Source of the DNA: an uncultured Gammaproteobacteria bacterium
Lineage (GTDB): Bacteria; Patescibacteriota; Patescibacteriia; UBA1558; S5-K13
DNA: 62,067 nucleotides
Assembly (NCBI GenBank): GCA_964486685.1
Contig: CAZAOE010000005.1
Location: 1-62,067 of the forward strand
Direction of reading: 5' to 3'
The notes under the pieces were generated by a model. That model made no database searches. It was not told where the DNA came from and saw only the letters and a program-made list of their open reading frames with translations. Both the position numbers and the translations under genes were made by a program. Positions 9,084-56,575 of the stretch are shown in pieces. Position 1 is the first letter of the stretch. Each line of letters starts with the position of its first letter.

Positions 9084-9273
9084 TCAATTACCAATTATCA
9101 ATTTACAATTTTCATTAAATGAACAATTAATCAATTACCAATTTGGAATTATTTTAGAAGCTAAATCGATAATTAAAAATCAAATAATTGATAATTTATT
9201 CAAAATTGAAAATTTAAAATTTAAAATTCTACCCCGTGCTTATCAAAATAAACTAACAAAAATAACTGAATTA

Positions 9274-10739: not shown

Positions 10740-10839
10740 CCCTCCTTCGCCAAAGGATTCGGAGGACTATCCTTCTATTTCCTAACGGAAATTACGGATG
10801 GCCTGTGCCATCCGAAGCTCTGCGAAGCAGAGCGAAGGA
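10740..10839. repeat. Palindromic repeat cluster at the tRNA-Gly 3' end
   Basis: CCTCCTTCGCCAAAGGATTCGGAGG hairpin, TGGCCTGTGCCATCCGAAGC, GCTCTGCGAAGCAGAGC, GCGAAGGAT; motifs shared with 48591-48697. Confidence 0.8.
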
Positions 10840-10914
10840 TGGAGCGGGTAGGGGGAATCGAACCCCCGTCTTCAGCTTGGAAAGCTGTAATAATAACCAT
10901 TATACTATACCCGC
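10840..10914 (-). tRNA. tRNA-Gly(TCC)
   Basis: GCGGGTA acceptor stem, CAGC-TTTCCAA-GCTG anticodon arm, GTTCGATTC, encoded CCA. Confidence 0.95.
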
Positions 10915-12246: not shown

Positions 12247-12459
12247 ATAATTATTTAAGCAATCATAAATTTATTTTATCATCAAAAAAGTAAAATTAAA
12301 AAGTTTTCTTTACTATTCTGCTTATCTTTGCTAAATTAAATATTACTTAATTAGTAACAAGTTAAAAGTTACAAGTTACAAGTAAATTAATAGCACTTGG
12401 AACTTGCCTGTCCTCTGAAGCCTTGGCGAAAGAGGACAACTTGAAACTATCAACTATTT

Positions 12460-15391: not shown

Positions 15392-15664
15392 CGCGATCCT
15401 AATATACTATATATTCTTAACCAGAGACCAGGTCTGCTGTATATGAAAATTACCAATTACCAATTTTCAATTTGAATTTAATTAAAAAATTTTCAATCAT
15501 CAATGTCTTACTAATTATCTACTTAAAACATTAATCGAGAGGAATTGTAAATTGAGTCATTGAGATTTAAATGAAAATTGAAAATTTCAAATTGATAATT
15601 GACTAAATTCTTCATTAAAATCACTAAACAAATTTAAATAATCTAAGTTAAATTAAAATCACCT

Positions 15665-18170: not shown

Positions 18171-20738
18171 ATGGACAAAACATACGAAGCAAAAAAATAT
18201 GAAGATGATATTTATTCAGAATGGTTAAATTCTGGATATTTTAATCCTGATAACTTGCCAAAAACAAATGGTAAAAATTTTTCAATTGTTCTTCCTCCTC
18301 CAAATGTAACCGGACAACTTCATATTGGTCATGCTGCTATGTTAGCTTATCAGGATTTAATGATCCGTTATCATCGCATGAAAGGTGATCAGGCCTTATG
18401 GCTACCCGGCATGGACCATGCTGCCATAGCTACCCAAACCGTGGTGGATAAAAAATTAAAAGTTCAAGGAATAGATAGACATCAAATTGGGCGAAAAAAG
18501 TTTTTAGCAGAGGTAGATAAATTTGTCCAAAAATCTAAAATAGTAATTAAAAAACAATTACAAAAAATGGGTTCTTCTTTGGACTGGTCGCGAGAAAGAT
18601 ATACTATGGACACTGGTTTAACTAAGGCCGTCCAAGGAGTGTTTATTAAAATGTATAATGATGGACTGATCTATAGAGGAAAAAGAGTGGTTAATTGGTG
18701 CCCACATTGTCAATCAACCTTAGCTGATGATGAAGTAGAATATAAAGAACAAAAAACCCCTTTTTATTATTTTAAATACGGTCCAGTGATAATTGGAACA
18801 GCTCGTCCGGAAACAAAATTTTCTGACAAAGTTATTATTGTTCACCCCAAAGACAAAAGATATAAAAATATAATTGGCAAAAAATTTGAAGTTGAATGGA
18901 TAGATGGCAAAATTAAAGCCCAAGTTATTGCTGACCCCATCGCTGATATGGAAATGGGCACTGGGGCTATGACTATTACTCCGGCCCATAGTTTTGCGGA
19001 TTTTGAATTAGCACAAAAATATAATTTAAAAATTGAAGAAATAATTAACAAAGCCGGAAAAATGACTTCTGCGGCCGGAAAATTGGCTGGCCTACCGGTT
19101 AAAGAGGCCCGTCAAAAAGTTGTGGAAATATTAAAGGCCAAGGGTTTAGTAAAAAAAATTGATCAGAATTATGTTCATAATCTTTCGGTTTGTTATCGTT
19201 GCGGAACACCAATTGAACCATTGCCTTCTGAACAATGGTTTATAGACGTTAATAAACCAATTAAACATAAACACAATAAAAGTTTAAAACAATTAGCTTC
19301 TGAAATAGTCAAAAAAGGTGAAATTAAGATTATTCCAGACAGATTTAATAAAACTTATTTCCAATGGATGGATAATTTAAGAGATTGGTGTATTTCTCGA
19401 CAAATCTGGTTTGGACATCGCATCCCGGTTTGGTATAACCAAACTTTAGAAGTTGAAACTGATAAAATAAAGGTTCAAAGCGAAAGCCCGGGAAAAGATT
19501 GGATTCAAGATCCCGATACTTTGGATACTTGGTTTTCTTCTTCTTTGTGGACATTTACTACTTTAGGTGGTCCGCAAGAAACTAAAGATTTAAAAAAATT
19601 TCATCCTACATCAATAATGGAAACCGGGTACGATATTTTATTTTTCTGGGTAGCTCGCATGATTTTAATGACCACTTATATTTTAGACGAAAAACCTTTT
19701 GAAAAAGTTTATTTACACGGCCTAGTAAGGGACAAGCAGGGCCGAAAAATGTCTAAGTCCCTGGGCAATGGTATTGACCCCTTAGAAATGATTGATAAAT
19801 ATGGAGCTGATGCCCTAAGATTGTCAATGATAATCGGCTCTACTCCAGGAAACGATATTACGCTTTATGATGAAAAAATCGCTGGCTTTAGAAATTTTGT
19901 TAATAAATTATGGAATATTTCCAGATTTGTATTATTAAATATTAAAAATCCAAAAATAATAGACAAACAGCCCAAACCAAAAACTTTGTTTGATAAATGG
20001 ATATTAAATAAATTAGCTGGTTTTATAGAAGATACCACAAAAAATTTAGATAATTTCAATTTTTCTATGGCTGGCAGAGCCTTAGAACAATTTACTTGGC
20101 ATGATTTTGCGGATTGGTATCTTGAAATAGCAAAGATAGAAAAAGATAAAGAAGAAATATTACTTTATTGTTTACAAACTATTTTAAAACTTTGGCATCC
20201 CTTCACTCCATATATAACGGAAGTAATTTGGAAAAATTTTAATTCCCAATTACTTATGATTTCCGAATGGCCAAAATCAAAATATAAAAAAGATCAAAAA
20301 ACAATGGATAATGTTCAAATAATACAACGTATAATTTTTGAAATTAATAAATTTAAAAATGAACACAAGCTTGATCCTGGAAAATATCTAGAATGTTTAA
20401 TTATTAGTAAAAAATATGATAAATTGGTTAATGAACAAAGTCATATTATAGAAAAATTAGCTCGTGTTAAACATATTAAAAAGGAAGAAAAATTAAAAAC
20501 GGAAATTCATCTTCCTAATATCAAAATTTACTTAAAAACAGAAACTAACCCCTCAACTTCGCTCAGGGCAAGAAAATCTAATGAAAAAGAAATTTCTAAT
20601 TTAGAAAAATACATCATCGGACTTAAGAAAAAATTATCCAATAAACAATTTATTCAAAAAGCTCCGACAGAAATAATTAAGCGAGAAAAGAAAAAACTCC
20701 AAGAAGCCGAAGAATTATTAGTTAAAATAAAAAAGTAA
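18171..20738 (+). CDS. valS: Valine--tRNA ligase
   Basis: PPPNVTG.LHIGH, DHAAIATQ, DWCISRQIWFGH, KMSKSLGN. Confidence 0.97.
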   Translation: MDKTYEAKKYEDDIYSEWLNSGYFNPDNLPKTNGKNFSIVLPPPNVTGQLHIGHAAMLAYQDLMIRYHRMKGDQALWLPGMDHAAIATQTVVDKKLKVQGIDRHQIGRKKFLAEVDKFVQKSKIVIKKQLQKMGSSLDWSRERYTMDTGLTKAVQGVFIKMYNDGLIYRGKRVVNWCPHCQSTLADDEVEYKEQKTPFYYFKYGPVIIGTARPETKFSDKVIIVHPKDKRYKNIIGKKFEVEWIDGKIKAQVIADPIADMEMGTGAMTITPAHSFADFELAQKYNLKIEEIINKAGKMTSAAGKLAGLPVKEARQKVVEILKAKGLVKKIDQNYVHNLSVCYRCGTPIEPLPSEQWFIDVNKPIKHKHNKSLKQLASEIVKKGEIKIIPDRFNKTYFQWMDNLRDWCISRQIWFGHRIPVWYNQTLEVETDKIKVQSESPGKDWIQDPDTLDTWFSSSLWTFTTLGGPQETKDLKKFHPTSIMETGYDILFFWVARMILMTTYILDEKPFEKVYLHGLVRDKQGRKMSKSLGNGIDPLEMIDKYGADALRLSMIIGSTPGNDITLYDEKIAGFRNFVNKLWNISRFVLLNIKNPKIIDKQPKPKTLFDKWILNKLAGFIEDTTKNLDNFNFSMAGRALEQFTWHDFADWYLEIAKIEKDKEEILLYCLQTILKLWHPFTPYITEVIWKNFNSQLLMISEWPKSKYKKDQKTMDNVQIIQRIIFEINKFKNEHKLDPGKYLECLIISKKYDKLVNEQSHIIEKLARVKHIKKEEKLKTEIHLPNIKIYLKTETNPSTSLRARKSNEKEISNLEKYIIGLKKKLSNKQFIQKAPTEIIKREKKKLQEAEELLVKIKK

Positions 20739-21086: not shown

Positions 21087-21262
21087 GGCCTTGTTTCTTT
21101 TTTTTAAAGCGATACAAATATAACTAATATACGAATTATTAGTATTTAATTAGTATATTAGCATCATCTCATTCGTATCATTAATATCAACAATTTCGTT
21201 AAAATCTACTAAACCAATCTTAAGCATAAGTTATATATAAAAAATTTAACCCAAAAACGAAC

Positions 21263-25367: not shown

Positions 25368-26129
25368 ATGTTAACTATTAGATTCAAAAGAGTTGGAAGA
25401 AAAAAAATTCCTATCTATCGAATAGTTTTAATGGAAAAACATAAAGATCCTTGGGCTGATTATAAAGAAAAGCTCGGATTTTATAATCCTAAAACTAAAG
25501 AAATAGAATTAAACGCGGAAAGAATAAAATATTGGATATCAGTTGGGGCTCAACCCTCTAATACTGTCCATAATTTATTAGTAAATAATGGAGTGATTGA
25601 AGGTGAAAAAAAGAAAGCCGTCAAAATCAGTAAAAAAAGACTGGCCCGGGAGAAAAAGAAAAAAGAAGCCACAGAAAAAGAAACTAAAACTAAGCAAGCA
25701 AAAACCGATCAAGCTAATTCTAAAGAAAAAGTAGAAACTAAAGAAGTAACAAAAACCACAGAAAGTCCTAAAGAAGAAACTAAGGATGAGGGGTCCCAAG
25801 ATAAGAAACCTGAAGCAGAAAAACCTGAAGATAAAAAAGTAAAAGAAGAGGTTAAGGAAGTTAAAAAGGATATCGAAGAAGTAAAAACAGAAATTAAACC
25901 TGAAAAAAAAGAAAAGATTAAAAAACAAGCAAAGCCCACAGAAACCCCAAAAGAAGAACCTATGGCTGAAGAAAAAAAAGAACAAAAACCTATCAAAGAA
26001 AAGAAAGAATCATCCTCCACTGCTATGCCTGCTGGCAAACAGGAAGCTACGGATGACAAGAAAACCAAAGAAGATAAGGTTAAAGATGAACCTAAGAAAG
26101 TTAAAGAAAAAAGTCCTGAGGAAAAATAA
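25368..26129 (+). CDS. rpsP: 30S ribosomal protein S16 with long K/E-rich C-terminal extension
   Basis: IRF.R.G.K..P.YRIV, LG.YNP, YW...GAQPS.TV in the first ~80 aa. Confidence 0.93.
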   Translation: MLTIRFKRVGRKKIPIYRIVLMEKHKDPWADYKEKLGFYNPKTKEIELNAERIKYWISVGAQPSNTVHNLLVNNGVIEGEKKKAVKISKKRLAREKKKKEATEKETKTKQAKTDQANSKEKVETKEVTKTTESPKEETKDEGSQDKKPEAEKPEDKKVKEEVKEVKKDIEEVKTEIKPEKKEKIKKQAKPTETPKEEPMAEEKKEQKPIKEKKESSSTAMPAGKQEATDDKKTKEDKVKDEPKKVKEKSPEEK

Positions 26130-26247
26130 TTAAAAATTGAGTCATTCCTGCCTTCGCCCCTCGATAAACTCAGGGCTACGGCAGGCAGGTAAAATTCATT
26201 TTAAATTGAAAATTTAGCAAATTTTAATTTTATTAAAATTCGCGTAT

Positions 26248-26322
26248 GCGGGTATCGTATAGTGGCTATTACACGGCCTTGCCAAGGCTGAGAGAGGGGT
26301 CCGATTCCCCTTACCCGCTCCA
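26248..26322 (+). tRNA. tRNA-Gly(GCC)
   Basis: GCGGGTA/TACCCGC acceptor stem, CGGCC-TTGCCAA-GGCTG anticodon arm, T-loop variant TCCGATT, encoded CCA. Confidence 0.93.
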
Positions 26323-26612
26323 TGAACTATTCGTCAAGCTCAGTAAACTATTCACTTCGTTCAAGTTTACTGCAGGTCGCTTGACTCAAGTTCATGGCGC
26401 GGCCATCAGTGCTATCTACAACATTGTTCAACGAATAGTTCATGTGGTGAACCCGAATGGAATGAGTGGTTTACCACTATCTCACTTTATTCGCTCAGGT
26501 TTATGGCGCTGCCACATATAAACCTATCAGAACGAATGGTTTATGTAGTGAACCCGAACGACTTGCAGTAAACCCGAACGAAACAAAGTGAAGAGAGTGG
26601 TTTACTGAGGGA
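26321..26612. repeat. Composite inverted-repeat array between tRNA-Gly and the GIY-YIG gene
   Basis: CATGAACTATTCGT (26321-26334)/ACGAATAGTTCATG (26431-26444); CTCAGTAAAC..GTTTACTGCA.GTCG (26339-26379) inverted at 26559-26609; three GT(G/A)AACCCGAA units. Confidence 0.85.
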
Positions 26613-26656
26613 GTGGTTCACTGTTATTACATACATAAAAATTAAAGAAAAGCGAT

Positions 26657-26917
26657 ATGACATTTTATTTTGTTTATATTTTATTTAGTTTAAAAGACAA
26701 AAAATTGTATATCGGTTTTACAAATAATCTCAAAAGTAGATATTCAAAACACAAAAATGGTAAAGTTAAATCAACTTGCAATAGAAGACCTTTGAAATTG
26801 ATTTTTTATGAGGCCTATTTAAATAAGTATGATGCTTTAAGAAGAGAAAGATATTTTAAAACCAATAAAGGTAAAACTACTTTGCGACAAATGTTAAAGA
26901 ATTTTTTGGAAGAATAA
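26657..26917 (+). CDS. Small standalone GIY-YIG endonuclease
   Basis: FVYIL..LYIGFT.NL..R...H..G, RP..L..YE, A..RE..K motifs. Confidence 0.9.
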   Translation: MTFYFVYILFSLKDKKLYIGFTNNLKSRYSKHKNGKVKSTCNRRPLKLIFYEAYLNKYDALRRERYFKTNKGKTTLRQMLKNFLEE

Positions 26918-28858: not shown

Positions 28859-29053
28859 TTTAAATTTTAAAAATTATATATTTAAATAAAATTAACTAAT
28901 TGCTAGAAATTAATAAGTGTAAAATGCGATACTAATAATCGATGCCAATATAGCGATACCAATATACTAATCTCATGCGAATAATACGAATATACTAATT
29001 ATTAGTATTAATTTGTATATTAGTATCATCCAATTCGTATCATTAGTATATAA

Positions 29054-37838: not shown

Positions 37839-38930
37839 TTATTTTTTATTTTTTGGCCTACCTATTCTTCTTTTAACTTTCCTTGTTCTGGATTTGTCGA
37901 AGGATGCTATTTTTTTAGACCTTGGTGTCGTATTAATATCTTTGACCTTAGCAACCTGAGCAGAAGACCTAGTATAATTAGACAAAGAAGAAATAATTCT
38001 GACTAATTTACTATACCTTTTTCCAGAAGTTAATTTTTTAAACAATAATGTCCAGCTAGATATTTGAAAAACTGAAATCCAGGCCCCAATAAGAGTATAA
38101 ATTATAACTAAAGGTAAAACCTTAAACAAAATTAAACCTAAAGCAAAATTCTTAAAAGAATAAAAAGTTAATAAATCTATTCTTAAAAATGGCCCGACAA
38201 TAATTATAGTTATAATTAATAGTACAAAACCAACAATAAAACTAATAATTGTTAGGGCCAGAGTCATTTCAACACTAATCAACCAATTTGTTCTAAAAAG
38301 GTCCCAGGCCTTAGAAATAGAATCTTTAAAATTTTCTTTTTTGATAACTACAAAATTAATAGCATATTTCATTATAAAAGATATAATAATAGCTATTGGT
38401 AAAAATATAATCCAAATAATTATACTAAATAGACTAGCTAACTTACTTCCTGAAAATACAATAATAGTTAAAATTGGAATTAAAATAACGAATAATAACA
38501 AGCCCACCAATACTCTTGATAATATATTTAATCCCAAAACTTTAATAAAATATTTTTGAGCTTCTTGAAAAATTAGCTTAAAACTAACTTTTTTATTTTC
38601 TGATATCAGATAAGTGGCATAAATAATTGCTGTTTGAGAAATTACTACTAACCAAGCAACTAATAAAAAAATTATTAAAAATATCAATAATAATAAAAGT
38701 CCTGAAATTATAACATCAAAACTAGGGGCTCCTTTAAATAAAGCTAAAAATAGTGGACTATTCCACAGACCTAAACTAGTTTTTTGTATTGAAGAAAACG
38801 AATTAAAAAATATTTGCATTTCCCCAGTATTTGCTACCCAAACTGCGAAAAATCCAAATATCCAAAGTAATTTATATTTTTTAGCAATTTTCCAGGCCTC
38901 TTTTAAAATAACACGATATAATGGTTCCAT
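37839..38930 (-). CDS. Hypothetical polytopic membrane protein with basic tail
   Basis: LWIFGFF motif, about 6-7 TM helices, RRxGRP tail. Confidence 0.7.
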   Translation of the reverse strand: MEPLYRVILKEAWKIAKKYKLLWIFGFFAVWVANTGEMQIFFNSFSSIQKTSLGLWNSPLFLALFKGAPSFDVIISGLLLLLIFLIIFLLVAWLVVISQTAIIYATYLISENKKVSFKLIFQEAQKYFIKVLGLNILSRVLVGLLLFVILIPILTIIVFSGSKLASLFSIIIWIIFLPIAIIISFIMKYAINFVVIKKENFKDSISKAWDLFRTNWLISVEMTLALTIISFIVGFVLLIITIIIVGPFLRIDLLTFYSFKNFALGLILFKVLPLVIIYTLIGAWISVFQISSWTLLFKKLTSGKRYSKLVRIISSLSNYTRSSAQVAKVKDINTTPRSKKIASFDKSRTRKVKRRIGRPKNKK

Positions 38931-39203: not shown

Positions 39204-41078
39204 TTAAATTTGCTTTTGTTCAATCCTCTCAATTTTTGTTGAGGTTTTTAATAATTTTTCAAAGGCCTCTTTCTCAATAGTTTCTTTCTTTAAAAGTTCT
39301 TGAGCAATTTTATCTAATTTAGTTTTATTTTTTTCAATAACTTCCCTGGCTCTATTATGACAAAAATCAATCAGGGACTTTATTTCTAAATCTATTTCTT
39401 CAGACATTTTTTCACTATAATCTTTTTTATCATGAATTTCTTTTCCTAAAAATATTAAGCTCTCGCTTTTTCCAAAAGTTCTATAGCCCAATTTTTCATT
39501 CATTCCAAATTTAGTAATCATTTTTTTTGCTAACTCTGTAACTTGATTTAAATCTGAACTAGCTCCATTAGTAATCTCGCCAAATATCAATTTCTCGGCC
39601 ACTAAGCCACCCAACATCATAGCAATATCATCAATAAATTCTGAGCGAGTGTTTAAATGTTTATCTTCTTCGGGAATATTCATAGTATAGCCAGCAGCCA
39701 TACCTCGAGAAATAATTGAAACCTTATGAATTGGGTCACAATGTAGGAGTAAATGACCAACTAAAGCATGACCAGCTTCATGATAAGCAGTAATCTTTTT
39801 TTCTCTTTCAGAAAGAATATGACTTTTTCTTTCTGGCCCTAACATTACCTTTTCAATACTTTCTAAAATATCTTGTTGGCTAATTCTTTTTTTATTACTT
39901 CTGGCCGATAAAATAGCCGCCTCATTTAAAACATTTTTTAAATCTGCTCCTGTAAAACCTGGGGTTCTTTGAGCAACTAATTTTAAACTTACGTCTTTTT
40001 CCAATGGTTTATTATTAGCATGAATTTCCAGTATGGCCTGGCGGTCTTTAATGTCTGGCTTATCTATTACTATTCTGCGGTCAAAACGGCCTGGTCTTAA
40101 AAGAGCTGGGTCTAAAACATCGGGCCGATTAGTAGCCGCCACAACAATTACATTAGTTTGATTATCAAAACCATCCATTTCTACTAATATTTGATTTAAA
40201 GTTTGTTCTCTTTCATCATGTGAACCACCCAAACCAGCGCCTCTTTGGCGACCCACAGCATCAATCTCATCAATAAAAACAATACAAGGAGCGCTTTTTT
40301 TGGCTTTTTTAAATAAATCTCGTACTCGAGATGCTCCAACCCCGACAAACATTTCTACAAATTCAGAACCAGATATATGAAAAAATGGCACCTCGGCTTC
40401 TCCAGCTATTGCTCTGGCTAATAATGTTTTACCAGTACCTGGAGCACCTAAAAGTAAGGCCCCCTTAGGAATTTCTGCTCCTAATTTGGTAAATTTTTGA
40501 GGATCCTTTAAAAAATCTACTATCTCATATAATTCTTCTTTGGCTTCTTTAGCGCCAGCCACATCTTTAAAAGTAACCTTTTTCTTTTTATTATCGGCTT
40601 GCCGGGCTCCAGATTGTCCAAAACTTAGGGCCTTGGAATTGGCTCCCTGAACTTTTTTAAACATAAACCAAATTAGCATTCCAATCAAAAGAAATGGAAA
40701 TAAAAATGGCAACATAGTAATTAGCCAATAGCCCAAGCCAGACTCATCTTTAATTTCTACATCTATTCTTTCTAAGGCCTCTGGTTGAACACCTAAATTT
40801 ACTAAAGTTTGAATTAAAGATTCTTCTTTTTCCTTCTGGCCCTTTTTAATTTCTCCATCACTCATTTCTACTGAAAGCTTCTCTCCAATAATTTCAATTT
40901 TTACAACTTCCCCAGTCTTAATCTGATTACTTAATTGAATTAAAGTAATGTCTTCCGACTTTTTATTATCAAATTCAAAAAAACTAAATAATCCACCCAA
41001 GGCAATAATTACCACAAAAAATATTAAAAAACTTTTTAGGCCTTTATTATTTAAGCCCTTATTTAAACTTTTATTCAT
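39204..41078 (-). CDS. ftsH: ATP-dependent zinc metalloprotease FtsH
   Basis: 2 TM helices, [25 protein letters not shown]. Confidence 0.97.
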
Positions 41079-41119
41079 ATATATTGATTATACTAGTATT
41101 GATAATATAATACCAATAA

Positions 41120-42589
41120 TTATTTTTTAACTTTGGATTTCTTAACTTTAGATTCTTTGGTCTTTAATTTTTTCTCTTTGCCTTGGTCCTCTTCACTTTG
41201 GTCGAGGTCTTTGACAAGACCTTTGGTGGTTTTTTTACCCTTCTTAATTTCTTCCTCATTCGCTAAAACTTTGGAGGACAGCTGTTTTTTAGTTTCTTGT
41301 TTTTCTGTTCCTTCGTTCTTTGGTCCTCCCTGCGCTGAAGCTTTGGGAGGTAAATCTTTTATTTCTTTGTCCTTTAGTTCTTTTGTTTCTTTGTCCTCTG
41401 GTTCCTTTGTTTCCTTGTCCTCTGGTTCCTTTGTTTCCTTGTCCTCTGTAGCTTTAGCGAAAGAGGATTTGTCCTTTGGTTCCTTAGTTTTTTTGGAACC
41501 TTTTAAAGAAAGTCCTAAACGATGTTCTCTAGTATCTAAATTTATAATTGTAAATTTGTATTCTTCTCCAATATTAACTACGTCTTCTGGACTATTAATA
41601 ATATTAGAACTCAACTCTGAAATATGGGCTAAGCCATGAATATCTTTATCTAATTCTACAAAGGCCCCAAAAGGATTTATTTTTAAAACCTTTCCCTTAA
41701 CCGTTGCTCCAACCTGATATCTTTTTTCAATATCCTTCCAAGGATCTAATATTAATCTTTTAATACTCAAAGAAATCCTACCCCCGTCAACAGAAATAAT
41801 TTCGGCCTTAACTTTGTCTCCAACTTTTACCACATCATTAGGGTCATCTATTCTTTGCCAAGCCAATTCAGAAATATGTACTAAGCCCTCTAAGTTATCA
41901 CCAAACTCTACAAAGGCCCCAAAATTTGCCACTCCAGTAATTCTGCCTGCTATAATTTTACCAACCTTATATTCTTCTAAAGTTTTCTTTTGATCTTCGG
42001 CCCAAGCGGCCTTTTGAGAAACAATTAATTTTAATTCTTTTTCATCAACATCAATCACCACTACTTTAAAATCCTGCCCTAAAAAACTTTTTAAATGTCC
42101 TAAAATTTTACTTTTATCACCACCTTCAACTCGCGGATAATACTTAGTAGTTAATTGCGAAACAGGCAAAAAACCCATTACATTGCCAACCTTTACCATT
42201 AATCCACCTTTATTAGCATCTATAACTTTAACATCTACTACTTCTTCTTCTTTCATTAATTTTTCTAGATTTTCCCAGGCCTGTTGATGGCCAGCATATC
42301 TAAATGATAGCTCCATCATTCCTTTTTCATTATCCAATTCTATAACAGTGGCTACGGCCTTGTCGCCAATTTTAAAATTTCCACCGCTTTCAGATTCATC
42401 ATAAATTTCCCCTCCTCTTACTAACCCTGAAGCAATGCCTTTATAATCTAAAACCACCTCATTTTTTCCAATAGAAATAACCTGACATTCAATTAAATCA
42501 CCAATTTGCGGTAATTTAATTTCGTCATGGCTTGCTAAAATTTTTCCAAAAGCAGTTTTGCTTTTATCTTTAATGTCTTGTGTACTCAT
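41120..42589 (-). CDS. rpsA: 30S ribosomal protein S1 (4 S1 domains) with repeat-derived tail
   Basis: NKGGL, FLP.SQL, FGAFV twice, GL.HISEL twice; start at ATG 42589; tail includes 24-bp tandem repeat EDKETKEP. Confidence 0.9.
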   Translation of the reverse strand: MSTQDIKDKSKTAFGKILASHDEIKLPQIGDLIECQVISIGKNEVVLDYKGIASGLVRGGEIYDESESGGNFKIGDKAVATVIELDNEKGMMELSFRYAGHQQAWENLEKLMKEEEVVDVKVIDANKGGLMVKVGNVMGFLPVSQLTTKYYPRVEGGDKSKILGHLKSFLGQDFKVVVIDVDEKELKLIVSQKAAWAEDQKKTLEEYKVGKIIAGRITGVANFGAFVEFGDNLEGLVHISELAWQRIDDPNDVVKVGDKVKAEIISVDGGRISLSIKRLILDPWKDIEKRYQVGATVKGKVLKINPFGAFVELDKDIHGLAHISELSSNIINSPEDVVNIGEEYKFTIINLDTREHRLGLSLKGSKKTKEPKDKSSFAKATEDKETKEPEDKETKEPEDKETKELKDKEIKDLPPKASAQGGPKNEGTEKQETKKQLSSKVLANEEEIKKGKKTTKGLVKDLDQSEEDQGKEKKLKTKESKVKKSKVKK

Positions 42590-43070
42590 ATTAATTATAA
42601 ATTTAAATTTACAATTTTCATTTCTCAATTTTCATTTAATAATCAATATTACAATGCTCAATTCTCAAAATTTGTTAATGGTAATTTAAAATTAAATCAT
42701 TGTAAATTAAATTCAAATTGAAAATTTATAATTGAAAATTAAAAAAAGACCTTTTAATTATTAATTGCCTGCATTAACTGGTCTAAAGCCAATCCAGGTT
42801 TCTATATATTAGTATATAATCAGAAAAAAAGCAAGAGTTAGCCATAGTTATAGGCCTTAAGCCGTAAGATATTTTAGAAAACAATCTAACTCCTCAACAA
42901 GCTCAAGGTCCACGACAATTTAACAATTTAACAGTTTAACAATTTAATTCTAATTTACAAAAAAATAGAATAAGGGTAAGATTAAAATATAATAATTCCT
43001 TTATTTAAAATTTAAAGGTCAACAAGTTCGGATATAAGAAGTTAGATGAAATAATTATTTTTTAATTTTT

Positions 43071-43592
43071 ATGTGGAAGACATCCTCATCGAAAGAAATT
43101 TTTAATCATCCCCGCTTAACCCTAATTGAAGACGAGGTAATTTTGCCTAATGGTGTTCAAATAACATATCTAAAATATAAAGACGATGGCGGTTGTTGTG
43201 CAACAATTATTGCTAAAAATGATGATGGCAAAATTCTGATACAATGAGAGTATTCTTATCCAACAAACCAAAAACTTTTTCAATTTCCAGGTGGTGCAGT
43301 TCCAGCGGGTGAAAAACCGGAAATTGGTGCCAACAGAGAACTTATGGAAGAGATGGGTCTTAAAGCAGACCACCTTAAGCTACTAGGAAGCTATTTAATA
43401 AACAATAGGCGTTCAGCAATGAAAATGTTTGTCTATTTGGCCACTGACTTGATAGAAGAATCACTTAATGCTGATCCGGAGGAAAATATAGAAAGTTTTT
43501 GGTTTTCAGAAGATGAGATAGTGAGGATGATTAAAAATGGAGACATAATTAATATTCATTCACTAGCGTCGTGGTGCCTGTATAAAAATTAA
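43071..43592 (+). pseudogene. NUDIX hydrolase (ADP-ribose pyrophosphatase-like) with in-frame TGA
   Basis: 174-codon frame from ATG 43071; TGA at 43245-43247 (IQ*EY); Nudix box PGG....GE.PE.GA.REL.EEMG. Confidence 0.85.
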
Positions 43593-43710
43593 AAAGAATT
43601 CGCGAGGAAAGTCATGAGGAAACTATTAAACGCATTAAATGGAGTCTTCCTGTTATATCTATGATGACAGAGGAAAGATTTATTAGTAAATAATATTTTG
43701 TGGTTACATC

Positions 43711-43756
43711 GCCTAACACGGAATATCTGGTTCCGCTATCGCTCCGCCCAAATTCT
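43711..43756 (+). other. attC-like left half (R'' core plus L boxes)
   Basis: GCCTAAC (RYYYAAC) 17 nt after a stop codon; imperfect GAATATCTGG/CCAAATTC stem; GTTAGAT (GTTRRRY) at 43041 precedes the NUDIX gene. Confidence 0.5.
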
Positions 43757-43794
43757 CTCCATAATTTTATTTATAAACTAATAATTTATTAAAT

Positions 43795-44886
43795 ATGAAA
43801 TCATCACTATTAAAAACATTTGGCATATCAAAACTGCTTCCTAAAACCGGGAAGCCAGCTTCTACACCAGGAACTATAAAATATTTAGGCAAAAAAAGAG
43901 AGGCCCCTGTGAAAATGCACATTCTTGATTACAATGAAACCAATTTTACAGAAAAAGAAATCAGCTCTATAGCCGAAAGTTTGCCTTTTAAAGAAAGCCC
44001 GAGCGTTACCTGGCTCAATATCACGGGTGTGCATGATGAAAAAATCATCCACGAAATCGGTGAAAAATTTAATATTCACCCGCTGGTGCTTGAAGATATT
44101 GCCAATACAACCCAGCGACCAAAAATAGAAGAATATGATAATTATTTATTTGTTATAGTTAAAATGGCTTACTTCAAAGAAGAAACCAAAGAAATAGTGT
44201 TTGAACAAGTAAGTATTATTATTGGAAAAGATTATCTAATCTCGCTCCAAGAAAAAGAGGGTGATATTTTGGAAGGATTGCGTGAACGTATTCGTAATAG
44301 CAAGGGCAAAATAAGAAAATTGGGGAGTGATTATCTCCTGTATGGAATTATAGATGCAATTGTTGACCATTATTTTTCCGTCCTGGAATATATTGGAGAA
44401 GAAATTGAAAACATGGAAGGTGGGCTGATGAAATCAGCAAATCAAGAATTACTCAATAAAATTTATGTACTCAAACAAGAACTTGTATTTTTACGTAAAT
44501 CAATCTGGCCAATGAGGGAAGTTATAAGTATTCTTCAAAGGGCCGAGCATGAACTAATAAACCAAGACACTTCAATTTATTTACGTGATGTGTATGACCA
44601 TACCATCCAGGTGGTAGAAACCGTGGAAACATTTCGCGATATGACATCAGGAATGCTTGACCTATACCTATCCACTGTTAGCAACAAAATGAATGAAGTT
44701 ATGAAGGTGCTAACCATTTTTGCAGCAATTTTTATACCACTAACTTTTATTGCCGGTGTTTATGGAATGAATTTTGAATTTATGCCAGAACTAAAATTAA
44801 GGATAGCTTATCCTATCTGGTGGGTAGCCGTTATAATATTAACTGTTGGAATGATTATTTATTTTAAAAAGAAAAAGTGGATGTAA
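43795..44886 (+). CDS. corA: Magnesium/cobalt transporter CorA
   Basis: HPL.LEDI, QRPK.E, MNEVMK.LT, YGMNF..MPEL, KKKW. Confidence 0.95.
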   Translation: MKSSLLKTFGISKLLPKTGKPASTPGTIKYLGKKREAPVKMHILDYNETNFTEKEISSIAESLPFKESPSVTWLNITGVHDEKIIHEIGEKFNIHPLVLEDIANTTQRPKIEEYDNYLFVIVKMAYFKEETKEIVFEQVSIIIGKDYLISLQEKEGDILEGLRERIRNSKGKIRKLGSDYLLYGIIDAIVDHYFSVLEYIGEEIENMEGGLMKSANQELLNKIYVLKQELVFLRKSIWPMREVISILQRAEHELINQDTSIYLRDVYDHTIQVVETVETFRDMTSGMLDLYLSTVSNKMNEVMKVLTIFAAIFIPLTFIAGVYGMNFEFMPELKLRIAYPIWWVAVIILTVGMIIYFKKKKWM

Positions 44887-45007
44887 TATTTTTTATTAAA
44901 AAAAATAGAATAAGGGTAAGATTAAAATACTTTCTACTTTCTCCTTTTACCTTGCCTGCCCTCCGAAGCTCGAAGAGCGAAGGGGGGTAACTTTTAACTG
45001 ATTTACC

Positions 45008-45709
45008 ATGACTAAAAAAGCCATTATTAAAAAAACTGAAAATTACGTTAAAAAATGCATGCAAAATCTACCGCCCAATATTCACGACTATAAGCATGTA
45101 GATCGGGTTCGTAAATGGGCCGTTAAAATAGCTAGGGCCGAAAAAAAAGATGTTTTTTTGGCCGAGATGGCTGCTCTCTTACACGACGTTGGCCGTGCTA
45201 AAGAAAAACCGCCTAAAATTTTACACGCAGATATTGGAGCTAAAATGGCTTATAATTTTTTAACTAAAAATTTATCCCCACACCTTAAGAAAGGTGATGG
45301 GGACAAATTAGTTTCTAAAAAAGAAGTTGAACAAATTGCTTATGCTGTAGCTTGCCATGGCCGAGGTGGCAAAGGATGGTTAGTAGAAATCTTACAGGAC
45401 GCTGATAAAATGGATGCTTTTGGTTTAATGGGTGTAATCCGAACTGCCCAGCATGCTTTTAAACTTCCAGAGTATAATGAAAAAAACATTTTAGGCCAAA
45501 CTAAATGGAAAAAGAATCAGTCCACTCAAATTTTAAAAACTAAAAAACATGTTGGTAAAACAATTATAGAAAATCTAAATTACATTATTAGTTGGGATAA
45601 TAATTTACATACTAAAACCGCTAAAAAATTAGCCAAACCCTTTGTTGATTATCTCAAACAAGGCCGAAAATTATTTATTAAACAAATTAATATTAATTCC
45701 CACACCTAA
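45008..45709 (+). CDS. HD domain phosphohydrolase
   Basis: HD..H..RV, AALLHD, H, DADKMDA.G..G..R. Confidence 0.85.
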   Translation: MTKKAIIKKTENYVKKCMQNLPPNIHDYKHVDRVRKWAVKIARAEKKDVFLAEMAALLHDVGRAKEKPPKILHADIGAKMAYNFLTKNLSPHLKKGDGDKLVSKKEVEQIAYAVACHGRGGKGWLVEILQDADKMDAFGLMGVIRTAQHAFKLPEYNEKNILGQTKWKKNQSTQILKTKKHVGKTIIENLNYIISWDNNLHTKTAKKLAKPFVDYLKQGRKLFIKQININSHT

Positions 45710-45751
45710 TTATTTTTAAATTAGTGTTGGGATAAAATAAAATTTTAAACT

Positions 45752-45783
45752 AAAAAAGGTAGCTAAATTAATTTACTACCTTT
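45752..45783. terminator. Terminator between convergent genes
   Basis: AAAGGTAG/CTACCTTT stem with A-run. Confidence 0.6.
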
Positions 45784-46471
45784 AAAATTTTTCTATAATT
45801 TCTTTGGCCTCGGTCAAAGATTTTACAATCTTTAACCTTGGCAAACCGGCTTGCAAAAAATCTTTTTCTTCAGATGCTCCAGAAACCATTCCAATAAAAT
45901 CAATTGGGAACTTGTCAGCCGAAACAAGATCATACTTCACGGTATCTCCAACATATAACATTTCATCTTGGAAAATAGAAAACTCTTTAGCATACTCAAC
46001 TATCAAAGAAAACACCCGATGGTCTGGTTTTAAAAATTTACAATCCTCAGCACCTTGGATAAAAGAAAAAATCTTCTTATCAATGCCAGCAAAATCTAAA
46101 TAGTTTAAAATTGAAAAAACTTTTTTAGATTCTCTAACCCTTGATGAGAGAATAACAATTTTAATTCCTTTTTCCACTAATTCAAGCAGAACTTTCTTGG
46201 CGTCTGGAAAAAAGTTATACCTCATTTCCGATTTGCTAAGCTGGGAATACCGCTCAATAAAAGCATTCTTTTCTCTTTCTGGCCAATTACATTTTTGGGC
46301 CAAAAAATCAACTAATTTTAACCAAGAATTTCCCCAGTCCTGTTTCAATAATTCCAGTGTTGGAATTTTAATTCCTAATTCTCTGGCCAATTTTTGATGG
46401 TTTTGCATTCCTTCCTTTGTTGAATTAAGTAAGGTGCCATCAAGATCAAAAATCACCATTTTAATTTTCAT
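45782..46471 (-). CDS. HAD-superfamily hydrolase
   Basis: FDLDGTL, LSS, KP, YVGD...D. Confidence 0.88.
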   Translation of the reverse strand: MKIKMVIFDLDGTLLNSTKEGMQNHQKLARELGIKIPTLELLKQDWGNSWLKLVDFLAQKCNWPEREKNAFIERYSQLSKSEMRYNFFPDAKKVLLELVEKGIKIVILSSRVRESKKVFSILNYLDFAGIDKKIFSFIQGAEDCKFLKPDHRVFSLIVEYAKEFSIFQDEMLYVGDTVKYDLVSADKFPIDFIGMVSGASEEKDFLQAGLPRLKIVKSLTEAKEIIEKF

Positions 46472-48390: not shown

Positions 48391-48467
48391 TGGTGCGTCT
48401 ACCTGGACTTGAACCAGGGACCTCGACTTTATAAGAGTCGCGCTCTAACCAGCTGAGCTATAGACGC
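48391..48467 (-). tRNA. tRNA-Ile(TAT)
   Basis: GCGTCTA/TAGACGC acceptor stem, AGCTCAGCTGGTTAGAGC D-arm, CGACT-CTTATAA-AGTCG anticodon arm, GTTCAAGTC, ACCA. Confidence 0.92.
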
Positions 48468-48590
48468 AAAATTAATTTTCAATTTTCAATTTCGAATAAA
48501 TTTCTAATGATTTAATCTTTAATTAATTTAAAATTTTTAAATTTTAAATTCAATTAAAATTTGTAATTTATAATTTATAATTTGAATAAA

Positions 48591-48697
48591 TGGCCGTGCC
48601 ATCCGAAGCGCAAATTAAATATTAATATTTTAAAATATATTATCAATGTCCTCCTTCATATAAAACTACGGAGGACATCCTTCGCTTGCGCGAAGGA
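48591..48697. repeat. Palindromic repeat cluster at the tRNA-Val 3' end
   Basis: TGGCCGTGCCATCCGAAGC, GTCCTCC..GGAGGAC, ATCCTTCGC-TTGC-GCGAAGGAT. Confidence 0.8.
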
Positions 48698-48774
48698 TGG
48701 TGGGCATGCTCGGATTTGAACCGAGGACCTCTACGATGTCAACGTAGCACTCTAACCAACTGAGCTACATGCCC
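48698..48774 (-). tRNA. tRNA-Val(GAC)
   Basis: GGGCATG acceptor stem, CTACG-TTGACAT-CGTAG anticodon arm, GTTCAAATC, ACCA. Confidence 0.95.
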
Positions 48775-48842
48775 ACAAATTAATTTTCAATTATAAAAAG
48801 CTATTAAAAGTATAGCTTAAAAAATAATATTTGTTAATTGTT

Positions 48843-49010
48843 ACCCCGCACCAGCCCCGCTCTGCCTGCCTACCCGCCCTCATTTTACGAAGTAAAATTA
48901 TGACGGGCAGGCAGGCCGAATTTTGCTCCGGCATAGACAGGGGGGGCGATGCGGGGTTTTGCTCCTGCATTGTATTGACAGAAGCCCTCAGCTCCTGCTG
49001 AAGGAGCTTC
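48843..49010. repeat. Multiply nested palindromes
   Basis: ACCCCGCA..TGCGGGGT outer; GCCTGCC..GGCAGGC; CCCG.C..ATTTT/AAAAT..GACGGG inner; GAAGC..GCTTC with AGCTCC/GGAGCT. Confidence 0.8.
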
Positions 49011-50145
49011 ACTTATGCTTTTTTATATTGTCCTTAATTAAGTTTAAAATTTTATATTTAACCTCTTCTGGAAAACCACTAATTTCAAAATTTAATAAAT
49101 CTTCATCACCAGATATTTTTAATTTATCCTTTAATTCCTGAATTAAATCAAAAGAATTATGTTTTTCATTGGAATGAACATAAACCTGAATTAAATCGGA
49201 TTTTTTAATCTTAAACAAAACAATAACTTCTGCTTGCGAGGCCTTAGAAATAAGCTCTTCTATTAAATCATTTATCTCCAAATCCTCTTCTTCGCTATCA
49301 AATTTTAGGGCCGACCAGGCCAATTTATTTTCTTCGTCATAATTCAATTCTGATAAAATTTGTCCCCATAATCTCAACATAGAAATTGATTTAGTTTGAT
49401 ATAAATTTTCAATAACTTTTTCTCTATTAGCCCCTAAATCTATTAATCTACTAGCTATATTTAGGGCCCTGGAGGTGACTTTTTTATTACTAAAACCCTT
49501 GGTAGAAGAAATTAATCCCGCCAAAAGACAAGTGGCGATGTTTCCAGTAATAGATAAATTATTTCTGACAAAAAAATTGAAAATCTGCTCTGACAAAGAA
49601 CCTCCGCTTACATCTACAAAATTAACTTGACCATATCTTTCGTTCCCGGCTTGATTACTGATATTAATAATCGGTGTTTCATGAAAAAAATCTGGATGGT
49701 CAGAAAAAATTTCCCCCAATGATTTCAAATCTGTCCCATTAAAAACTATAATCAAATCATAAGAATTTTTATAAAATGCTCTAATATGGTCTAAAGAAAT
49801 CTCATTGGGACTAGAATTCACTAATACATTTAAACGAGTGTTTGTTTGAGTATAATCAATATTGCTAATTTGGGTCATACTAGTATCAATGGAAATAACT
49901 AATCTTCGCAAATGATCAAATTTTAATTTAGCCTTTTCTAAATTAGGAAGAAAGCTATATATTTTTTTCGGCTTTTGCGGTAGAATGAAATCAATATTAT
50001 CACCCTTAGCTTGGCTGATTAAATAATTATAAAAAGCCAAAAGAGAGGTTAAGCAATCTCCATTATAATTAACTGGGGCTAAAAGCAATATATTTTTGCT
50101 ATTATTTATCAATTGATAAATTTGTTGATTTGTACTTAATGTCAT
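49009..50145 (-). CDS. Degenerate DHH-family phosphoesterase-like protein
   Basis: DHH fold pattern (GD...S.LA, N..YG.VN, AT.LL.G....T..F, LWG..L) but DHH and GGGH motifs are absent. Confidence 0.7.
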   Translation of the reverse strand: MTLSTNQQIYQLINNSKNILLLAPVNYNGDCLTSLLAFYNYLISQAKGDNIDFILPQKPKKIYSFLPNLEKAKLKFDHLRRLVISIDTSMTQISNIDYTQTNTRLNVLVNSSPNEISLDHIRAFYKNSYDLIIVFNGTDLKSLGEIFSDHPDFFHETPIINISNQAGNERYGQVNFVDVSGGSLSEQIFNFFVRNNLSITGNIATCLLAGLISSTKGFSNKKVTSRALNIASRLIDLGANREKVIENLYQTKSISMLRLWGQILSELNYDEENKLAWSALKFDSEEEDLEINDLIEELISKASQAEVIVLFKIKKSDLIQVYVHSNEKHNSFDLIQELKDKLKISGDEDLLNFEISGFPEEVKYKILNLIKDNIKKHK

Positions 50146-50322
50146 ATTATTTTAATTACCAATTTAAAATTTACAATTTTCATTTAATAACCAATATAAC
50201 AATATACAATAATCAATATATTTTATCCGAATTTTTAATAAAAGATTATTGATCATTGAAGTATTGAAAATTAAATGTAAATTGAAAATTGGTAATTTCT
50301 AATTAAAAAAGGATATTATAGC

Positions 50323-50410: not shown

Positions 50411-52390
50411 ATGAATGTTACCGAATTAGCCCGAAAATTAAAAACTCCCACAAATGAACTCTTGGAAATATTACCAGAGCTCGGTTTTGATATTGGAGCT
50501 AAGGCAATTAAGATAGATGATTCTTTAATTGATAAAATCATTACAGCACATAACAACTATAAAAAAAAGGAGAAAATGAGAGCCGAGGATGAAGAAATAC
50601 AAGAAATCAAGATTGAAGATCAGGATAAAAAAGAAATTAGTCCTGATAAAATATTAGAAATTGGCAATGAAATTATTGTTCGAGACATGGCTGAAAAAAT
50701 GAAATTTCCAATTAATAAAGTTATGGCCGAATTAATGAAAAACGGAATCATGGTTTCATTAAATTCTTCTATTGATTTTGAAACGGCTACTATTATAGCT
50801 GAAGATTTAGGATTTGAAGTAAAAAAAATATCTTCTGAAAAAAAAGAAAAAGAAATTGAAGAAGAAAAAATGGAAAAATTAAAAAATCTTCTCTCCCAAA
50901 ATAAAAATCTAAAAACCAAGCCACCAGTGGTAGTTGTCATGGGACACGTTGACCATGGTAAAACTAAATTATTAGATACAATTAGAAAAACAAACGTTAT
51001 TGATACTGAGGCTGGCAATATAACCCAGCATATTGGAGCTTATCAAGTTGAGTGTAGTGGTAAGCTTATTACTTTTTTAGATACTCCCGGACACGAGGCC
51101 TTTAAGGCCATGCGCTCTCGCGGAACAAAGATTGCTGACGTGGGCATAATAGTTATAGCTGCCGATGAAGGATTAAAACCCCAAACCATTGAATCAATTG
51201 AATTGCTCCAAAAAGAAAAACTTCCTTTTTTAATTGCCATTAATAAAATAGATAAAGACGAGGCTGATATAGAAAAAATTAAAAAAGAGTTATCAGAATT
51301 AAATTTAACTCCCGAAGATTGGGGTGGAAAAACAATTTGTGTAGAAATATCTGCTAAACAAAACATTAATATAGATGGCTTATTAGAAATGGTTAATTTA
51401 ATGGCTGATCTGGAAAATTTACAGGCCGATGCGGGTCGCCAGGCCATTGGAACCATAATTGAATCTCATGTTGACAAAAATCAGGGCCCAGTAGCATCAG
51501 TTTTAATTCAAACTGGTACTTTAAAATTACAAGACGAATTTAGTGCTGGCCATACTTTTGGGAAAGTAAAAGCCATGATAAATTATGCTGGACAAAATAT
51601 CAAAGAAGCTCCGCCCTCTACTCCTGTTAGAATCCTTGGTTTTAAAGATGCTCCGGCAGTAGGAGACATCTTTAGCGCCGAAATTTCTGCTCAAGAATTA
51701 AAAACTATTAAAAAAAATAAGTCTAAAAGACCAATTAACAAACAACAAAAAACTAATTCCCAAAAATCTGACGAAGAAGAAAAAATTAAATCTCTTAATA
51801 TTATTCTGAAAACAGATGTAATCGGATCCCAAGGGGCCATAGAAGAATCTTTGGCTAAAATAATAAGGGAAGATTTAAAGATAAAAATAATCAAAAAGGG
51901 ATTAGGAAGCATAACCGATAAAGATGTTTTGGATGCCGAAGCCACCAAGGCCCTCTTAATTGGATTTCATGTCCAAATAGATCCCAATGCCGAAATGTTG
52001 AGCAAGGAGAAGAGCATTGAAATTAAAAATTACCAAATAATTTATAAACTCTTGGAAGACGTAGAAGAAAAAATAAATAAAATGTCTTCTGAAAAAATTA
52101 TTCGTAAACAAACAGGAGAATTAAAGGTCTTGGCAATTTTTAAAACCCTTAAAAACAAATCCATATTAGGTGGAAAAGTAATTAAAGGTCAAATAGAAAA
52201 AGGAAATATTGCTAAAATAATTAGAGCCAAAGAATGTATTGCTCGCGGAAAAATAAATAATCTCCAAAGCGGGAAAGAGAATGTTCAAGAAGTTGTAACC
52301 GGCCAAGAATGTGGAATAGAATTTGAAGGAGAAACTATTATAGAACCAGGAGATGTTTTAGAGGCCTATAAAGAAATTAAAAAACAATAA
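50411..52390 (+). CDS. infB: Translation initiation factor IF-2
   Basis: GHVDHGKT, ITQHIGAY, DTPGHEAF, NKID, ECGI. Confidence 0.97.
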   Translation: MNVTELARKLKTPTNELLEILPELGFDIGAKAIKIDDSLIDKIITAHNNYKKKEKMRAEDEEIQEIKIEDQDKKEISPDKILEIGNEIIVRDMAEKMKFPINKVMAELMKNGIMVSLNSSIDFETATIIAEDLGFEVKKISSEKKEKEIEEEKMEKLKNLLSQNKNLKTKPPVVVVMGHVDHGKTKLLDTIRKTNVIDTEAGNITQHIGAYQVECSGKLITFLDTPGHEAFKAMRSRGTKIADVGIIVIAADEGLKPQTIESIELLQKEKLPFLIAINKIDKDEADIEKIKKELSELNLTPEDWGGKTICVEISAKQNINIDGLLEMVNLMADLENLQADAGRQAIGTIIESHVDKNQGPVASVLIQTGTLKLQDEFSAGHTFGKVKAMINYAGQNIKEAPPSTPVRILGFKDAPAVGDIFSAEISAQELKTIKKNKSKRPINKQQKTNSQKSDEEEKIKSLNIILKTDVIGSQGAIEESLAKIIREDLKIKIIKKGLGSITDKDVLDAEATKALLIGFHVQIDPNAEMLSKEKSIEIKNYQIIYKLLEDVEEKINKMSSEKIIRKQTGELKVLAIFKTLKNKSILGGKVIKGQIEKGNIAKIIRAKECIARGKINNLQSGKENVQEVVTGQECGIEFEGETIIEPGDVLEAYKEIKKQ

Positions 52391-52577
52391 AACGATGCCA
52401 ATATAGCGATACCAATATACGAATGGCATACGAATTATACTAATATGCTAATCATTAGTATTTAATTAGTATATTAGTATTAAACCATTAGTATCATCAG
52501 TATTAGTATATTACCCGCCATAATTTTATAAAAATTAAGGCGGGATTAGTATCATTTAATTCGTATCATTAGTATTT

Positions 52578-56342: not shown

Positions 56343-56575
56343 AATTTAGAATGATGAATTACGAATTTTGATTAAACCCCATCACCCTTTACTTTAAAAA
56401 TTTGATATCTTAATTTTATTATATAATTTTTTTGAAATAATTCTTTGATAATATTTTGTAAAAAAGGTGATGGGGTAAATTTCTAATTATTTAATTTCAA
56501 ATTAATTCATAATTCTAAAATTTAAAATTCATAATTTAATCGAAATTAAAAATTAAAAATTCAAAACTTAATTCT

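Follow-up and report, generated by a model that had tools for sequence, protein, structure and literature searches.

Analysis of a 62,067-nucleotide stretch of DNA (contig CAZAOE010000005.1, hereafter the window) from a candidate-phyla-radiation (CPR) bacterium revealed families of GC-rich palindromic repeats, 20–45 nt in length, that very probably colonise the reduced, AT-rich genome of this host, with in-frame copies adding short peptides to the tails and loops of essential proteins. A preliminary description of the window had put forward the idea that new peptide sequence arises in such places from several repeat families, and this is supported here by the peptides being indels, by the presence of the same units between genes and by two structure models. 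The window is contig C5 of genome G000, which comprises 1,093,105 bases in 51 contigs at 30.0% G+C, with an estimated completeness of 95%. Its closest relative is G003 (S1 81% identical), and the other relatives used for comparison include G001, G002, G004 and G005. The host genes in the window, as identified by Pfam, are as follows.

8352–9083: YebC gene
18171–20738: ValRS gene (valS)
25368–26129: S16 gene (rpsP)
41120–42628, minus strand: ribosomal protein S1 gene (rpsA)
45008–45709: HD-domain protein gene

The part of rpsA that encodes the S1 tail contains three hairpins, together with repeated units and a module that recurs in the tails of other proteins.

41438–41467 (hairpin proper 41442–41467), minus strand: hairpin 1, core family, 30 nt read as SSFAKATEDK
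41355–41448, minus strand: tandem 24-nt units (KETKEPED three times) between hairpins 1 and 2, direct-repeat family D3, copies 85–89% alike
41325–41350, minus strand: hairpin 2, PPKASAQGG, inside a 72-nt tail module at 41311–41382
41253–41280, minus strand: hairpin 3, LSSKVLANEE, with the core read from the opposite strand
41186–41223, minus strand: 38-nt tail module KGLVKDLDQSEED, common to other tails

All three hairpins had been assigned to one repeat family and proved to be true members of it. Hairpin 1 matches both an intergenic copy at 12409–12436 and a copy at C10 6527–6554 with 89% identity over 28 nt, hairpin 3 matches the C10 copy equally well, and the two differ from the 19-nt core of the family, TTCGCTAAAGCTWCGGAGG, by one and two mismatches, respectively. 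Hairpin 2 has kin between genes at C1 26886–26909 (92%). In the G003 ortholog the whole of hairpin 1 is represented by a clean 30-nt gap. The S1 tails of relatives are Lys/Glu-rich in 11 of 11 cases and none of the 11 contains these peptides.

The shared sequence in the tails extends beyond single hairpins. The 72-nt module is 97.2% identical to part of the NusA tail (C17 2439–2510) and, over 63 nt, 93.7% identical to the L3 tail (C34 4927–4989), and it has a counterpart outside open reading frames (ORFs) at C3 5553. The 38-nt module shares 92% identity with the L15 tail (C1 7669–7706), 93% over 27 nt with C11 11535–11561 and 87% with the NusA tail (C17 2317–2347). A further module, SSSATSFATSFAK.SEVKKATEDKE, is common to S5, L15, L3 and a desulfoferrodoxin, and is built from an inner hairpin (ACTTCC-core-GGAAGT) enclosed by an outer one (TCCTCT...AGAGGA), with a 12-nt tandem unit. 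The G000 modules are absent from the NusA, L3, L15 and S5 tails of five relatives, relative to which L15 of G000 is longer by 65–105 residues and S5 by 39–49. When the 45-residue module of the L3 tail was searched against proteins globally, with longer proteins admitted, only the L3 of G000 passed E≤0.001 among 102 candidates, a result that is uninformative because short matches cannot be significant among 5.8 billion sequences.

The tail of S16 also contains a hairpin of the core family.

26010–26057, plus strand: core-family hairpin in the rpsP tail, within which a second one, SSSTAMPAGKQEATDD, may be nested

This repeat had been described as a family member interrupted by a decayed 20-mer. 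The first part of that description is borne out by the 3′ half of the hairpin, which matches a copy in PheT with 94.7% identity over 19 nt (BLAST, E 0.039), whereas the inner 20-mer was not significant by BLAST; a second hairpin nested within the first is a possible feature of the locus. The S16 tails of relatives could not be aligned, and that of G004 contains SSSAKAMDDKK.

Insertions were also found away from the ribosomal-protein tails, in the following genes of the window.

8907–8933, plus strand: insertion TKGSDQSKR in yebC
20547–20570, plus strand: insertion NPSTSLRA in valS, in the linker before the C-terminal arm
37882–37905, minus strand: eight-residue insertion SFDKSRTR in a membrane-protein gene (37839–38930)
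45272–45304, plus strand: in-frame insertion of 33 nt in the HD-domain gene, read as LSPHLKKGDGD, of the CCCCACAC...GTGTGGGG family

The insertion in the HD-domain gene corresponds to an exact 33-nt gap in G003 and is missing from 38 of 39 homologs, the sole filled homolog (P0009, 66% identical) having KSPHFKKSGGD at that position. In the AlphaFold model of the protein (mean pLDDT 89.9) the insert forms coil between the helices at residues 73–87 and 104–115, and residues 91–100 have the lowest internal confidence (mean pLDDT 65). The family to which this hairpin belongs, marked by the motif CCCCAC, has 19 copies, 11 of which lie in ORFs, and ten of these 11 share a single reading phase, giving (K/S)SP(H/Q/R)...G.GD. 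Its other hosts named by Pfam are a GT2 glycosyltransferase, RNase H, PrmC, thymidylate kinase, MnmA, RsmA and an RluD-type pseudouridine synthase. A strict form of the CCCCAC pattern was found at 14 places in G000, six in G004, five in G001, one in G003 and none in G002, with at most one in 36 other relatives and one hit in the control. By eye, an eighth other host was read as a MiaB-MiaA fusion, and a protein of 784 residues at C3:61085–63439 looks like such a fusion.

The remaining insertions behave similarly when compared with orthologs. NPSTSLRA, which sits between the Pfam domains Anticodon_1 (608–738) and Val_tRNA-synt_C (804–853), is absent from the ValRS of G002, G004 and G005, and G003 has a longer version; a related sequence occurs at C19 4147–4178 (32 nt, 87.5%, E 0.006). 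The indel expected of this peptide was seen in three of four aligned relatives, whereas its proposed likeness to intergenic sequences at 26157 and 42891 was not among the BLAST hits at E≤5. SFDKSRTR, the stem of which is just 5 bp, is missing in five of five relatives, with a gap in G003, and TKGSDQSKR is missing in four of five, G003 having an 18-residue version at the same site. In PheRS-beta the insert is STFTSSSAKATEDKKASADRQT; the G003 version is longer, with four ATSF units, the site is empty in G002 and G005, and a different insert is found in G004. RsmA has two sites, both of which are coil of low confidence in its model (mean pLDDT 88.0), with the lowest internal pLDDT as in the HD model, and site 1 is filled in five of 42 homologs, whose hairpin-like peptides all differ. 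All alignable peptides (S1 hairpin 1, HD, PheRS-beta, ValRS, YebC and the 37839 gene) are thus indels relative to orthologs, no gap-free alignment, the outcome that had been named as refuting the proposal, was found, and the two structure models (HD and RsmA) place the peptides in low-confidence loops, as had been anticipated. Different hairpin peptides fill the same protein sites in different lineages at the HD site (in the 66%-identical homolog), at RsmA site 1 and in PheT of G004 (L023), which points to preferred sites having been hit repeatedly or to inserts that are old and evolve fast.

Large internal extra regions were noted in two aminoacyl-tRNA synthetases. The ValRS frame of G002 (L028/L029, C1:73020–76106) has 1038 residues, with ∼190 extra between query residues 425 and 442 that may represent either an inserted domain or an intein, and LeuRS of G000 (C15:11484–15104), inspected by eye, has 1206 residues.

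Hairpins were counted genome-wide as perfect 6-bp stems with at least four G/C and a loop of 3–30 nt, overlapping ones being merged. This revealed 723 merged GC-rich hairpins, 331 within ORFs, 26 straddling an ORF end and 366 outside ORFs, the last group being confined to the 15% of the genome that lies outside ORFs. BLAST sorted the merged hairpins into 44 clusters, of which the biggest have 29, 28 and 19 members, and in nearly all hairpins the 5′ arm is C-rich and the 3′ arm G-rich. In the 752 ORFs of at least 150 codons, GC-rich stems were two to seven times as frequent as expected from ten codon shuffles of the same ORFs: 278 versus 138.3±12.8 for 6-bp stems, 49 versus 14.1±3.9 for 7-bp stems and 8 versus 1.1±0.8 for 8-bp stems. 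Between genes, the density per kb was highest in convergent intervals (3.65), followed by tandem (2.17) and divergent (1.33) ones. The three intergenic copies that had been listed at 10740, 12410 and 48648 were all located, and the reported match of the HD hairpin to a pair of arms near 56376 and 56478 was confirmed, its 3′ arm recurring there.

10740–10767: core-family copy, intergenic
12410–12437: core-family copy, intergenic, the one matched by rpsA hairpin 1
48648–48676: intergenic copy with the same stem and a decayed core, beside a tRNA gene (cluster 20)
56376–56475: intergenic inverted repeat with arms matching the HD hairpin, CCCCATCACC at 56377–56386 and AGGTGATGGGG at 56465–56475

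A search of the whole window with Rfam at gathering thresholds returned four tRNAs and no family covering the hairpins. GC-rich hairpins directly adjoin tRNAs (10843–10914, 48394–48467 and 48701–48774) at 10795–10842, 48590–48611 and 48679–48696, and several of these have the heptamer GCGAAGC at the tip. GCGAAGC forms a very stable DNA mini-hairpin.

It could be argued that the shared tail peptides arose only by recombination or gene conversion among Lys/Glu-rich low-complexity tails, with no hairpin having been inserted. Such tails are already present in all relatives, they contain tandem units, and the near-identical segments (72 nt at 97% and 63 nt at 94%) run past the palindrome into Lys/Glu-coding flanks. 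Because identity extends beyond the palindromes in this way, copying from tail to tail by recombination is likely, and recombination probably adds to the spread of the units. It cannot be the whole story, since the tail units are also intergenic, S1 hairpin 1 is a clean 30-nt gap, and isolated exact insertions occur in the structured domains of the HD protein, PheRS-beta, RsmA, MnmA and thymidylate kinase. As a complete explanation, recombination is consequently improbable.

A comparison of G000 with 388,859 bases of G003 (nine contigs; 289,520 aligned columns) revealed 98 indels of at least 12 nt, 47 of them in ORFs of at least 150 codons. Thirty-one of these 47 are multiples of three, and several others are split gaps of single events. 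Many of the 47 are GC-rich hairpins, which were found as inserts in both genomes, and one copy of the CCCCAC family is filled in G003 and empty in G000; both genomes have gained or lost copies since their divergence. The G+C fraction of the inserts ranges from 0.4 to 0.8. GC-rich insertions (≥0.4) that reach 15 nt or more number 18 in G000, 14 of them within open frames of at least 150 codons, and 15 in G003, 10 of them within such frames. At coding sites the frame is kept open in 24 of 25 of these insertions, a single one disrupting a frame whose counterpart in the other genome is open. The clean inserts measure 24, 30, 33, 33, 33 and 42 nt. From these kept reading frames we infer that the coding hairpins are translated. 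The peptides predicted at the junctions are SSFAKATEDK and DLPPKASAQGGPK in the S1 tail, NLSPHLKK/GDGDK in the HD protein and SSSAKATEDK in PheRS-beta, those across DKSSFAKATEDK and NLSPHLKKGDGDK being further examples.

Were the ribosome instead to hop over the genic hairpins, or the hairpins to be removed from the RNA, they would leave no peptide. There is precedent in the mitochondrial byp elements, which are described in PMC8811140 as GC-rich hairpin inserts in an AT-rich genome. Keeping the frame, however, is the expectation of selection on a translated insert and is not needed under bypass, so that its retention in 24 of 25 insertions argues for translation; bypass likewise imposes no constraint such as that seen in the lengths of the clean inserts, and ten of 11 CCCCAC copies share one phase. 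No joint was seen in the RNA-library contigs, which cover hairpin 2 alone among the three S1 hairpins and the HD insertion. The contig in question spans 41281–41420 with hairpin 2 uncut, zero differences and zero joints, and this is weak support because such libraries may contain DNA. Overall, skipping or removal of the hairpins appears very unlikely.

The core family extends well beyond G000. Its core, TTCGCTAAAGCTTCGG, is flanked by varying 6-bp stems, and the 19-nt form gave 20 hits at up to three mismatches in G000, nine in ORFs and 11 intergenic, two of them being rpsA hairpins 1 and 3. Within the order, 34 of 41 genomes contain the 19-nt core, among them G000 (20 hits), G003 (30), G019 (15) and G008 (14), compared with six hits in all for the reversed core used as a control. 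Among 70 copies of a 14-nt core in G000 and the G003 contigs, 30 have at least five contiguous flanking pairs, 20 of which have exactly six, whereas re-dealt flanks gave a mean of 6.2 and a maximum of 11 copies with at least five pairs. The 30 paired copies use 20 different 6-bp stems, indicating co-variation of the stems around a conserved core. Of 20 copies sampled in G008, which belongs to another genus, and G036, from another family, eight fall within open frames of at least 150 codons, where they read as xAEALAKAx or STSAKASAD. Three of the four G008 frames that were checked carry the copy internally, in a radical-SAM protein, a Memo-AMMECR1 linker and a PFOR subunit, and the fourth has it at codons 9–15; one core copy of G036 lies upstream of the called start.

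These stems also bear on the idea that the recurring peptides (KSPHLKKGGGDK, SSFAKATED and PPKASAQGG) represent short linear motifs on which selection acts in the protein, for example as a site of binding or modification, the palindromy of their DNA being incidental. A single dominant reading phase and the filling of the same sites in different lineages would fit such selection. Against it, the motif DNA is common outside genes, the stems co-vary with pairing kept, the host proteins are functionally unrelated, and the core is read from one strand or the other, depending on the gene, to give unrelated peptides (FAKATE versus KVLANE and AEALAKA), leaving this idea with only a slender chance of being correct. 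Least credible of all is an artefact of assembly or binning, for although G000 is a 51-contig metagenome assembly in which short repeats may misjoin contigs, the inserts are far below read length with frames that remain open, 99% of sampled words of 40000–46000 occur in ten other public assemblies (lake-water metagenomes, possibly the source samples), the separate genome G003 carries inserts at the same PheRS-beta, ValRS and YebC sites, and database homologs have inserts at the HD and RsmA sites.

Collectively, the data favour in-frame colonisation by the repeats, for which the following course can be proposed. Each unit has a 5′ arm rich in pyrimidines, followed by a loop and a 3′ arm rich in purines. 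Intergenic copies form the majority, are densest 3′ of genes and probably act there as transcript-end hairpins in the manner of REP elements, by analogy. Genic copies would persist only where the frame is kept, no stop codon is introduced and the location is tolerant, such as linkers between domains, loops at the surface and the disordered Lys/Glu-rich tails of S1, S5, S16, L3, L15 and NusA. Reading through a unit would give a peptide of 8–15 residues, with the C-rich arm encoding Ser/Pro and the G-rich arm Gly/Asp/Glu/Arg, residues that would suit loops. Within tails, units may nest, expand in tandem (as in the 12-nt ATSF unit) and be copied from tail to tail. Our best guess for the spread of the units is a single-strand hairpin route, perhaps via a Y1 (IS200/RAYT-like) transposase, together with recombination between tails. 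G000 has two genes of this type.

C44:97–456: Y1 transposase, IS200-like TnpA, with hairpins on both sides
C3:29246–29746: Y1 transposase, RAYT-like, with two copies of the CAAGGGGTTGCAACCCCTTG hairpin at its 3′ end

Several results weigh against this account. The CAAGGGGTTGCAACCCCTTG hairpin is not among the families found in genes, and neither Y1 transposase could be linked to any family that is. The 14 clean junctions revealed no consistent target-site duplication or target word, and GTAG/CTAC within 6 nt of the end was not enriched, occurring in 21 of 366 hairpins versus 27.6±4.6 at random places. Because the S1 tail is unalignable past hairpin 1, insertion is demonstrated for one of the three S1 hairpins. 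Two of the indels in the window are without detectable relatives in the genome: the segment at 37875–37912 that contains SFDKSRT, grouped with the repeats in the preliminary description, has no second copy (BLAST, best E 0.35), and the yebC insert has no significant one, its reported DNA likeness to rpsA being at chance level (17 nt, E 0.43). RsmA site 2 is not a pure insertion, the loop being variable in all homologs and ∼2–4 residues over the usual length. In the CCCCAC family, the length from C-run to G-run is 27 nt in nine of 12 coding versus three of 18 intergenic rows (Fisher p=0.0024), which counts in favour of the account, but a stricter census (8/9 arm matches) kept only four coding rows, because coding copies carry more stem mismatches, and gave p=0.14; moreover, the bias could be the mark of a sub-family instead of selection, since 27-nt copies also predominate in G001 and G004. 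Finally, the translation of coding hairpins is deduced from the DNA.

A number of other features were noted. A composite palindrome of ∼120 nt, very GC-rich, at 48836–48960 overlaps a small ORF (48791–49012) that is probably spurious. A degenerate direct-repeat block at 26330–26640 lies 3′ of a tRNA gene (26248–26319) and is followed by a small ORF (26657–26917), which by eye is a putative GIY-YIG-like gene. Two sets of AT-rich intergenic repeats, of the AATTACCAATT type and the ATACCAATATAC/TTAGTATATTAG type (families D1, D2, D7 and D9–D11), occur at 9086–9142, 15448–15504, 42606–42662 and 50154–50210, and also at 21112–21187, 28937–29049 and 52390–52575. Elsewhere in G000, five proteins (C1:43040–53694 and C15:24406–27482) have WMTSGGNEE after a hydrophobic stretch and are probably paralogs, small proteins of a membrane or pilin-like kind.

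Among the closest parallels in behaviour are the Rickettsia palindromic elements (RPEs), the analogue named in the preliminary description, which, according to PMC10969869 (citing Ogata et al. 2000), are ∼150 bp long, lie in-frame in many housekeeping genes, are compatible with the protein fold, are absent from orthologs and have no known dedicated transposase. Like them, the hairpins of G000 are multi-copy palindromes in a reduced genome, in frame in unrelated genes and absent from orthologs. Compared with the ∼100–150 bp and the conserved peptide of tens of residues given there for RPEs, the units here are about five times smaller, at 24–45 nt and 8–15 residues, with clean inserts of 24–42 nt. 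They also differ in being GC-rich within a 30% GC genome, in falling into 44 clusters, in forming nested and composite modules in ribosomal-protein tails and in having a CPR host.

Repetitive extragenic palindromes (REPs) are imperfect palindromes of 20–40 bp, mostly 3′ of genes, some of which lie wholly in ORFs and are coding, according to Di Nocera et al. 2013 (PMC3733652). The present families share with REPs, as portrayed there, high copy number, an extragenic bias, the order convergent > tandem > divergent and the presence of Y1 (RAYT-type) genes. Unlike classical REPs, they show no enrichment of the GTAG tag, no RAYT is tied to the genic families, a conserved loop or core is combined with a variable stem, and ribosomal proteins and translation factors are prominent hosts. 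The GC clusters of yeast mitochondria, according to PMC8811140, are mostly intergenic, with optional in-frame insertions in var1 that explain differences in protein size. They resemble the families described here as GC-rich palindromes in an AT-rich genome with in-frame copies in ribosomal proteins (the S1, S5, L3 and L15 tails), and differ in that the present host is a bacterial chromosome with many host genes and that the 14 junctions revealed neither terminal AG/TAG repeats nor a consistent duplication of the target. The byp elements of Magnusiomyces mitochondria are characterised in the same paper (after Lang et al. 2014) as GC-rich coding hairpins that are kept in the mRNA and skipped by the ribosome; the hairpins of G000 likewise lie inside coding regions, but their frame and phase are conserved, pointing to read-through. 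Nor do they resemble miniature inverted-repeat transposable elements, which are derived from insertion sequences and have terminal inverted repeats and a target duplication of fixed length, as here the whole unit is one hairpin and junction duplications are absent or of varying length. Full-text literature searches, outside the coverage of which most subscription journals lie, returned no paper on such elements in these bacteria.

Relative to these systems, what is new is the part of the bacterial tree concerned, the much smaller unit, and an element found order-wide with a conserved core and co-varying stems. CPR bacteria combine tiny genomes with oddly extended housekeeping proteins, and small GC-rich hairpins provide a concrete, testable source of such extensions. 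For annotation and phylogenomics, alignments of ribosomal proteins from these lineages will hold repeat-derived, non-homologous segments. A bolder and rather doubtful reading is that the core-family hairpin is an ancient, structure-defined element of the whole order, selfish or functional, which spreads by recognition of its core and not of its ends and is a main source of lineage-specific extensions and loop insertions in ribosomal and other housekeeping proteins of these organisms. Such an element would comprise a variable 6-bp pyrimidine/purine stem, a symmetric internal loop that reads TTC/TTC on one strand and GAA/GAA on its complement, a GC clamp and a TAAA loop. If this reading were true, protein sequence would still be arising de novo in these bacteria from hairpins that do not code.

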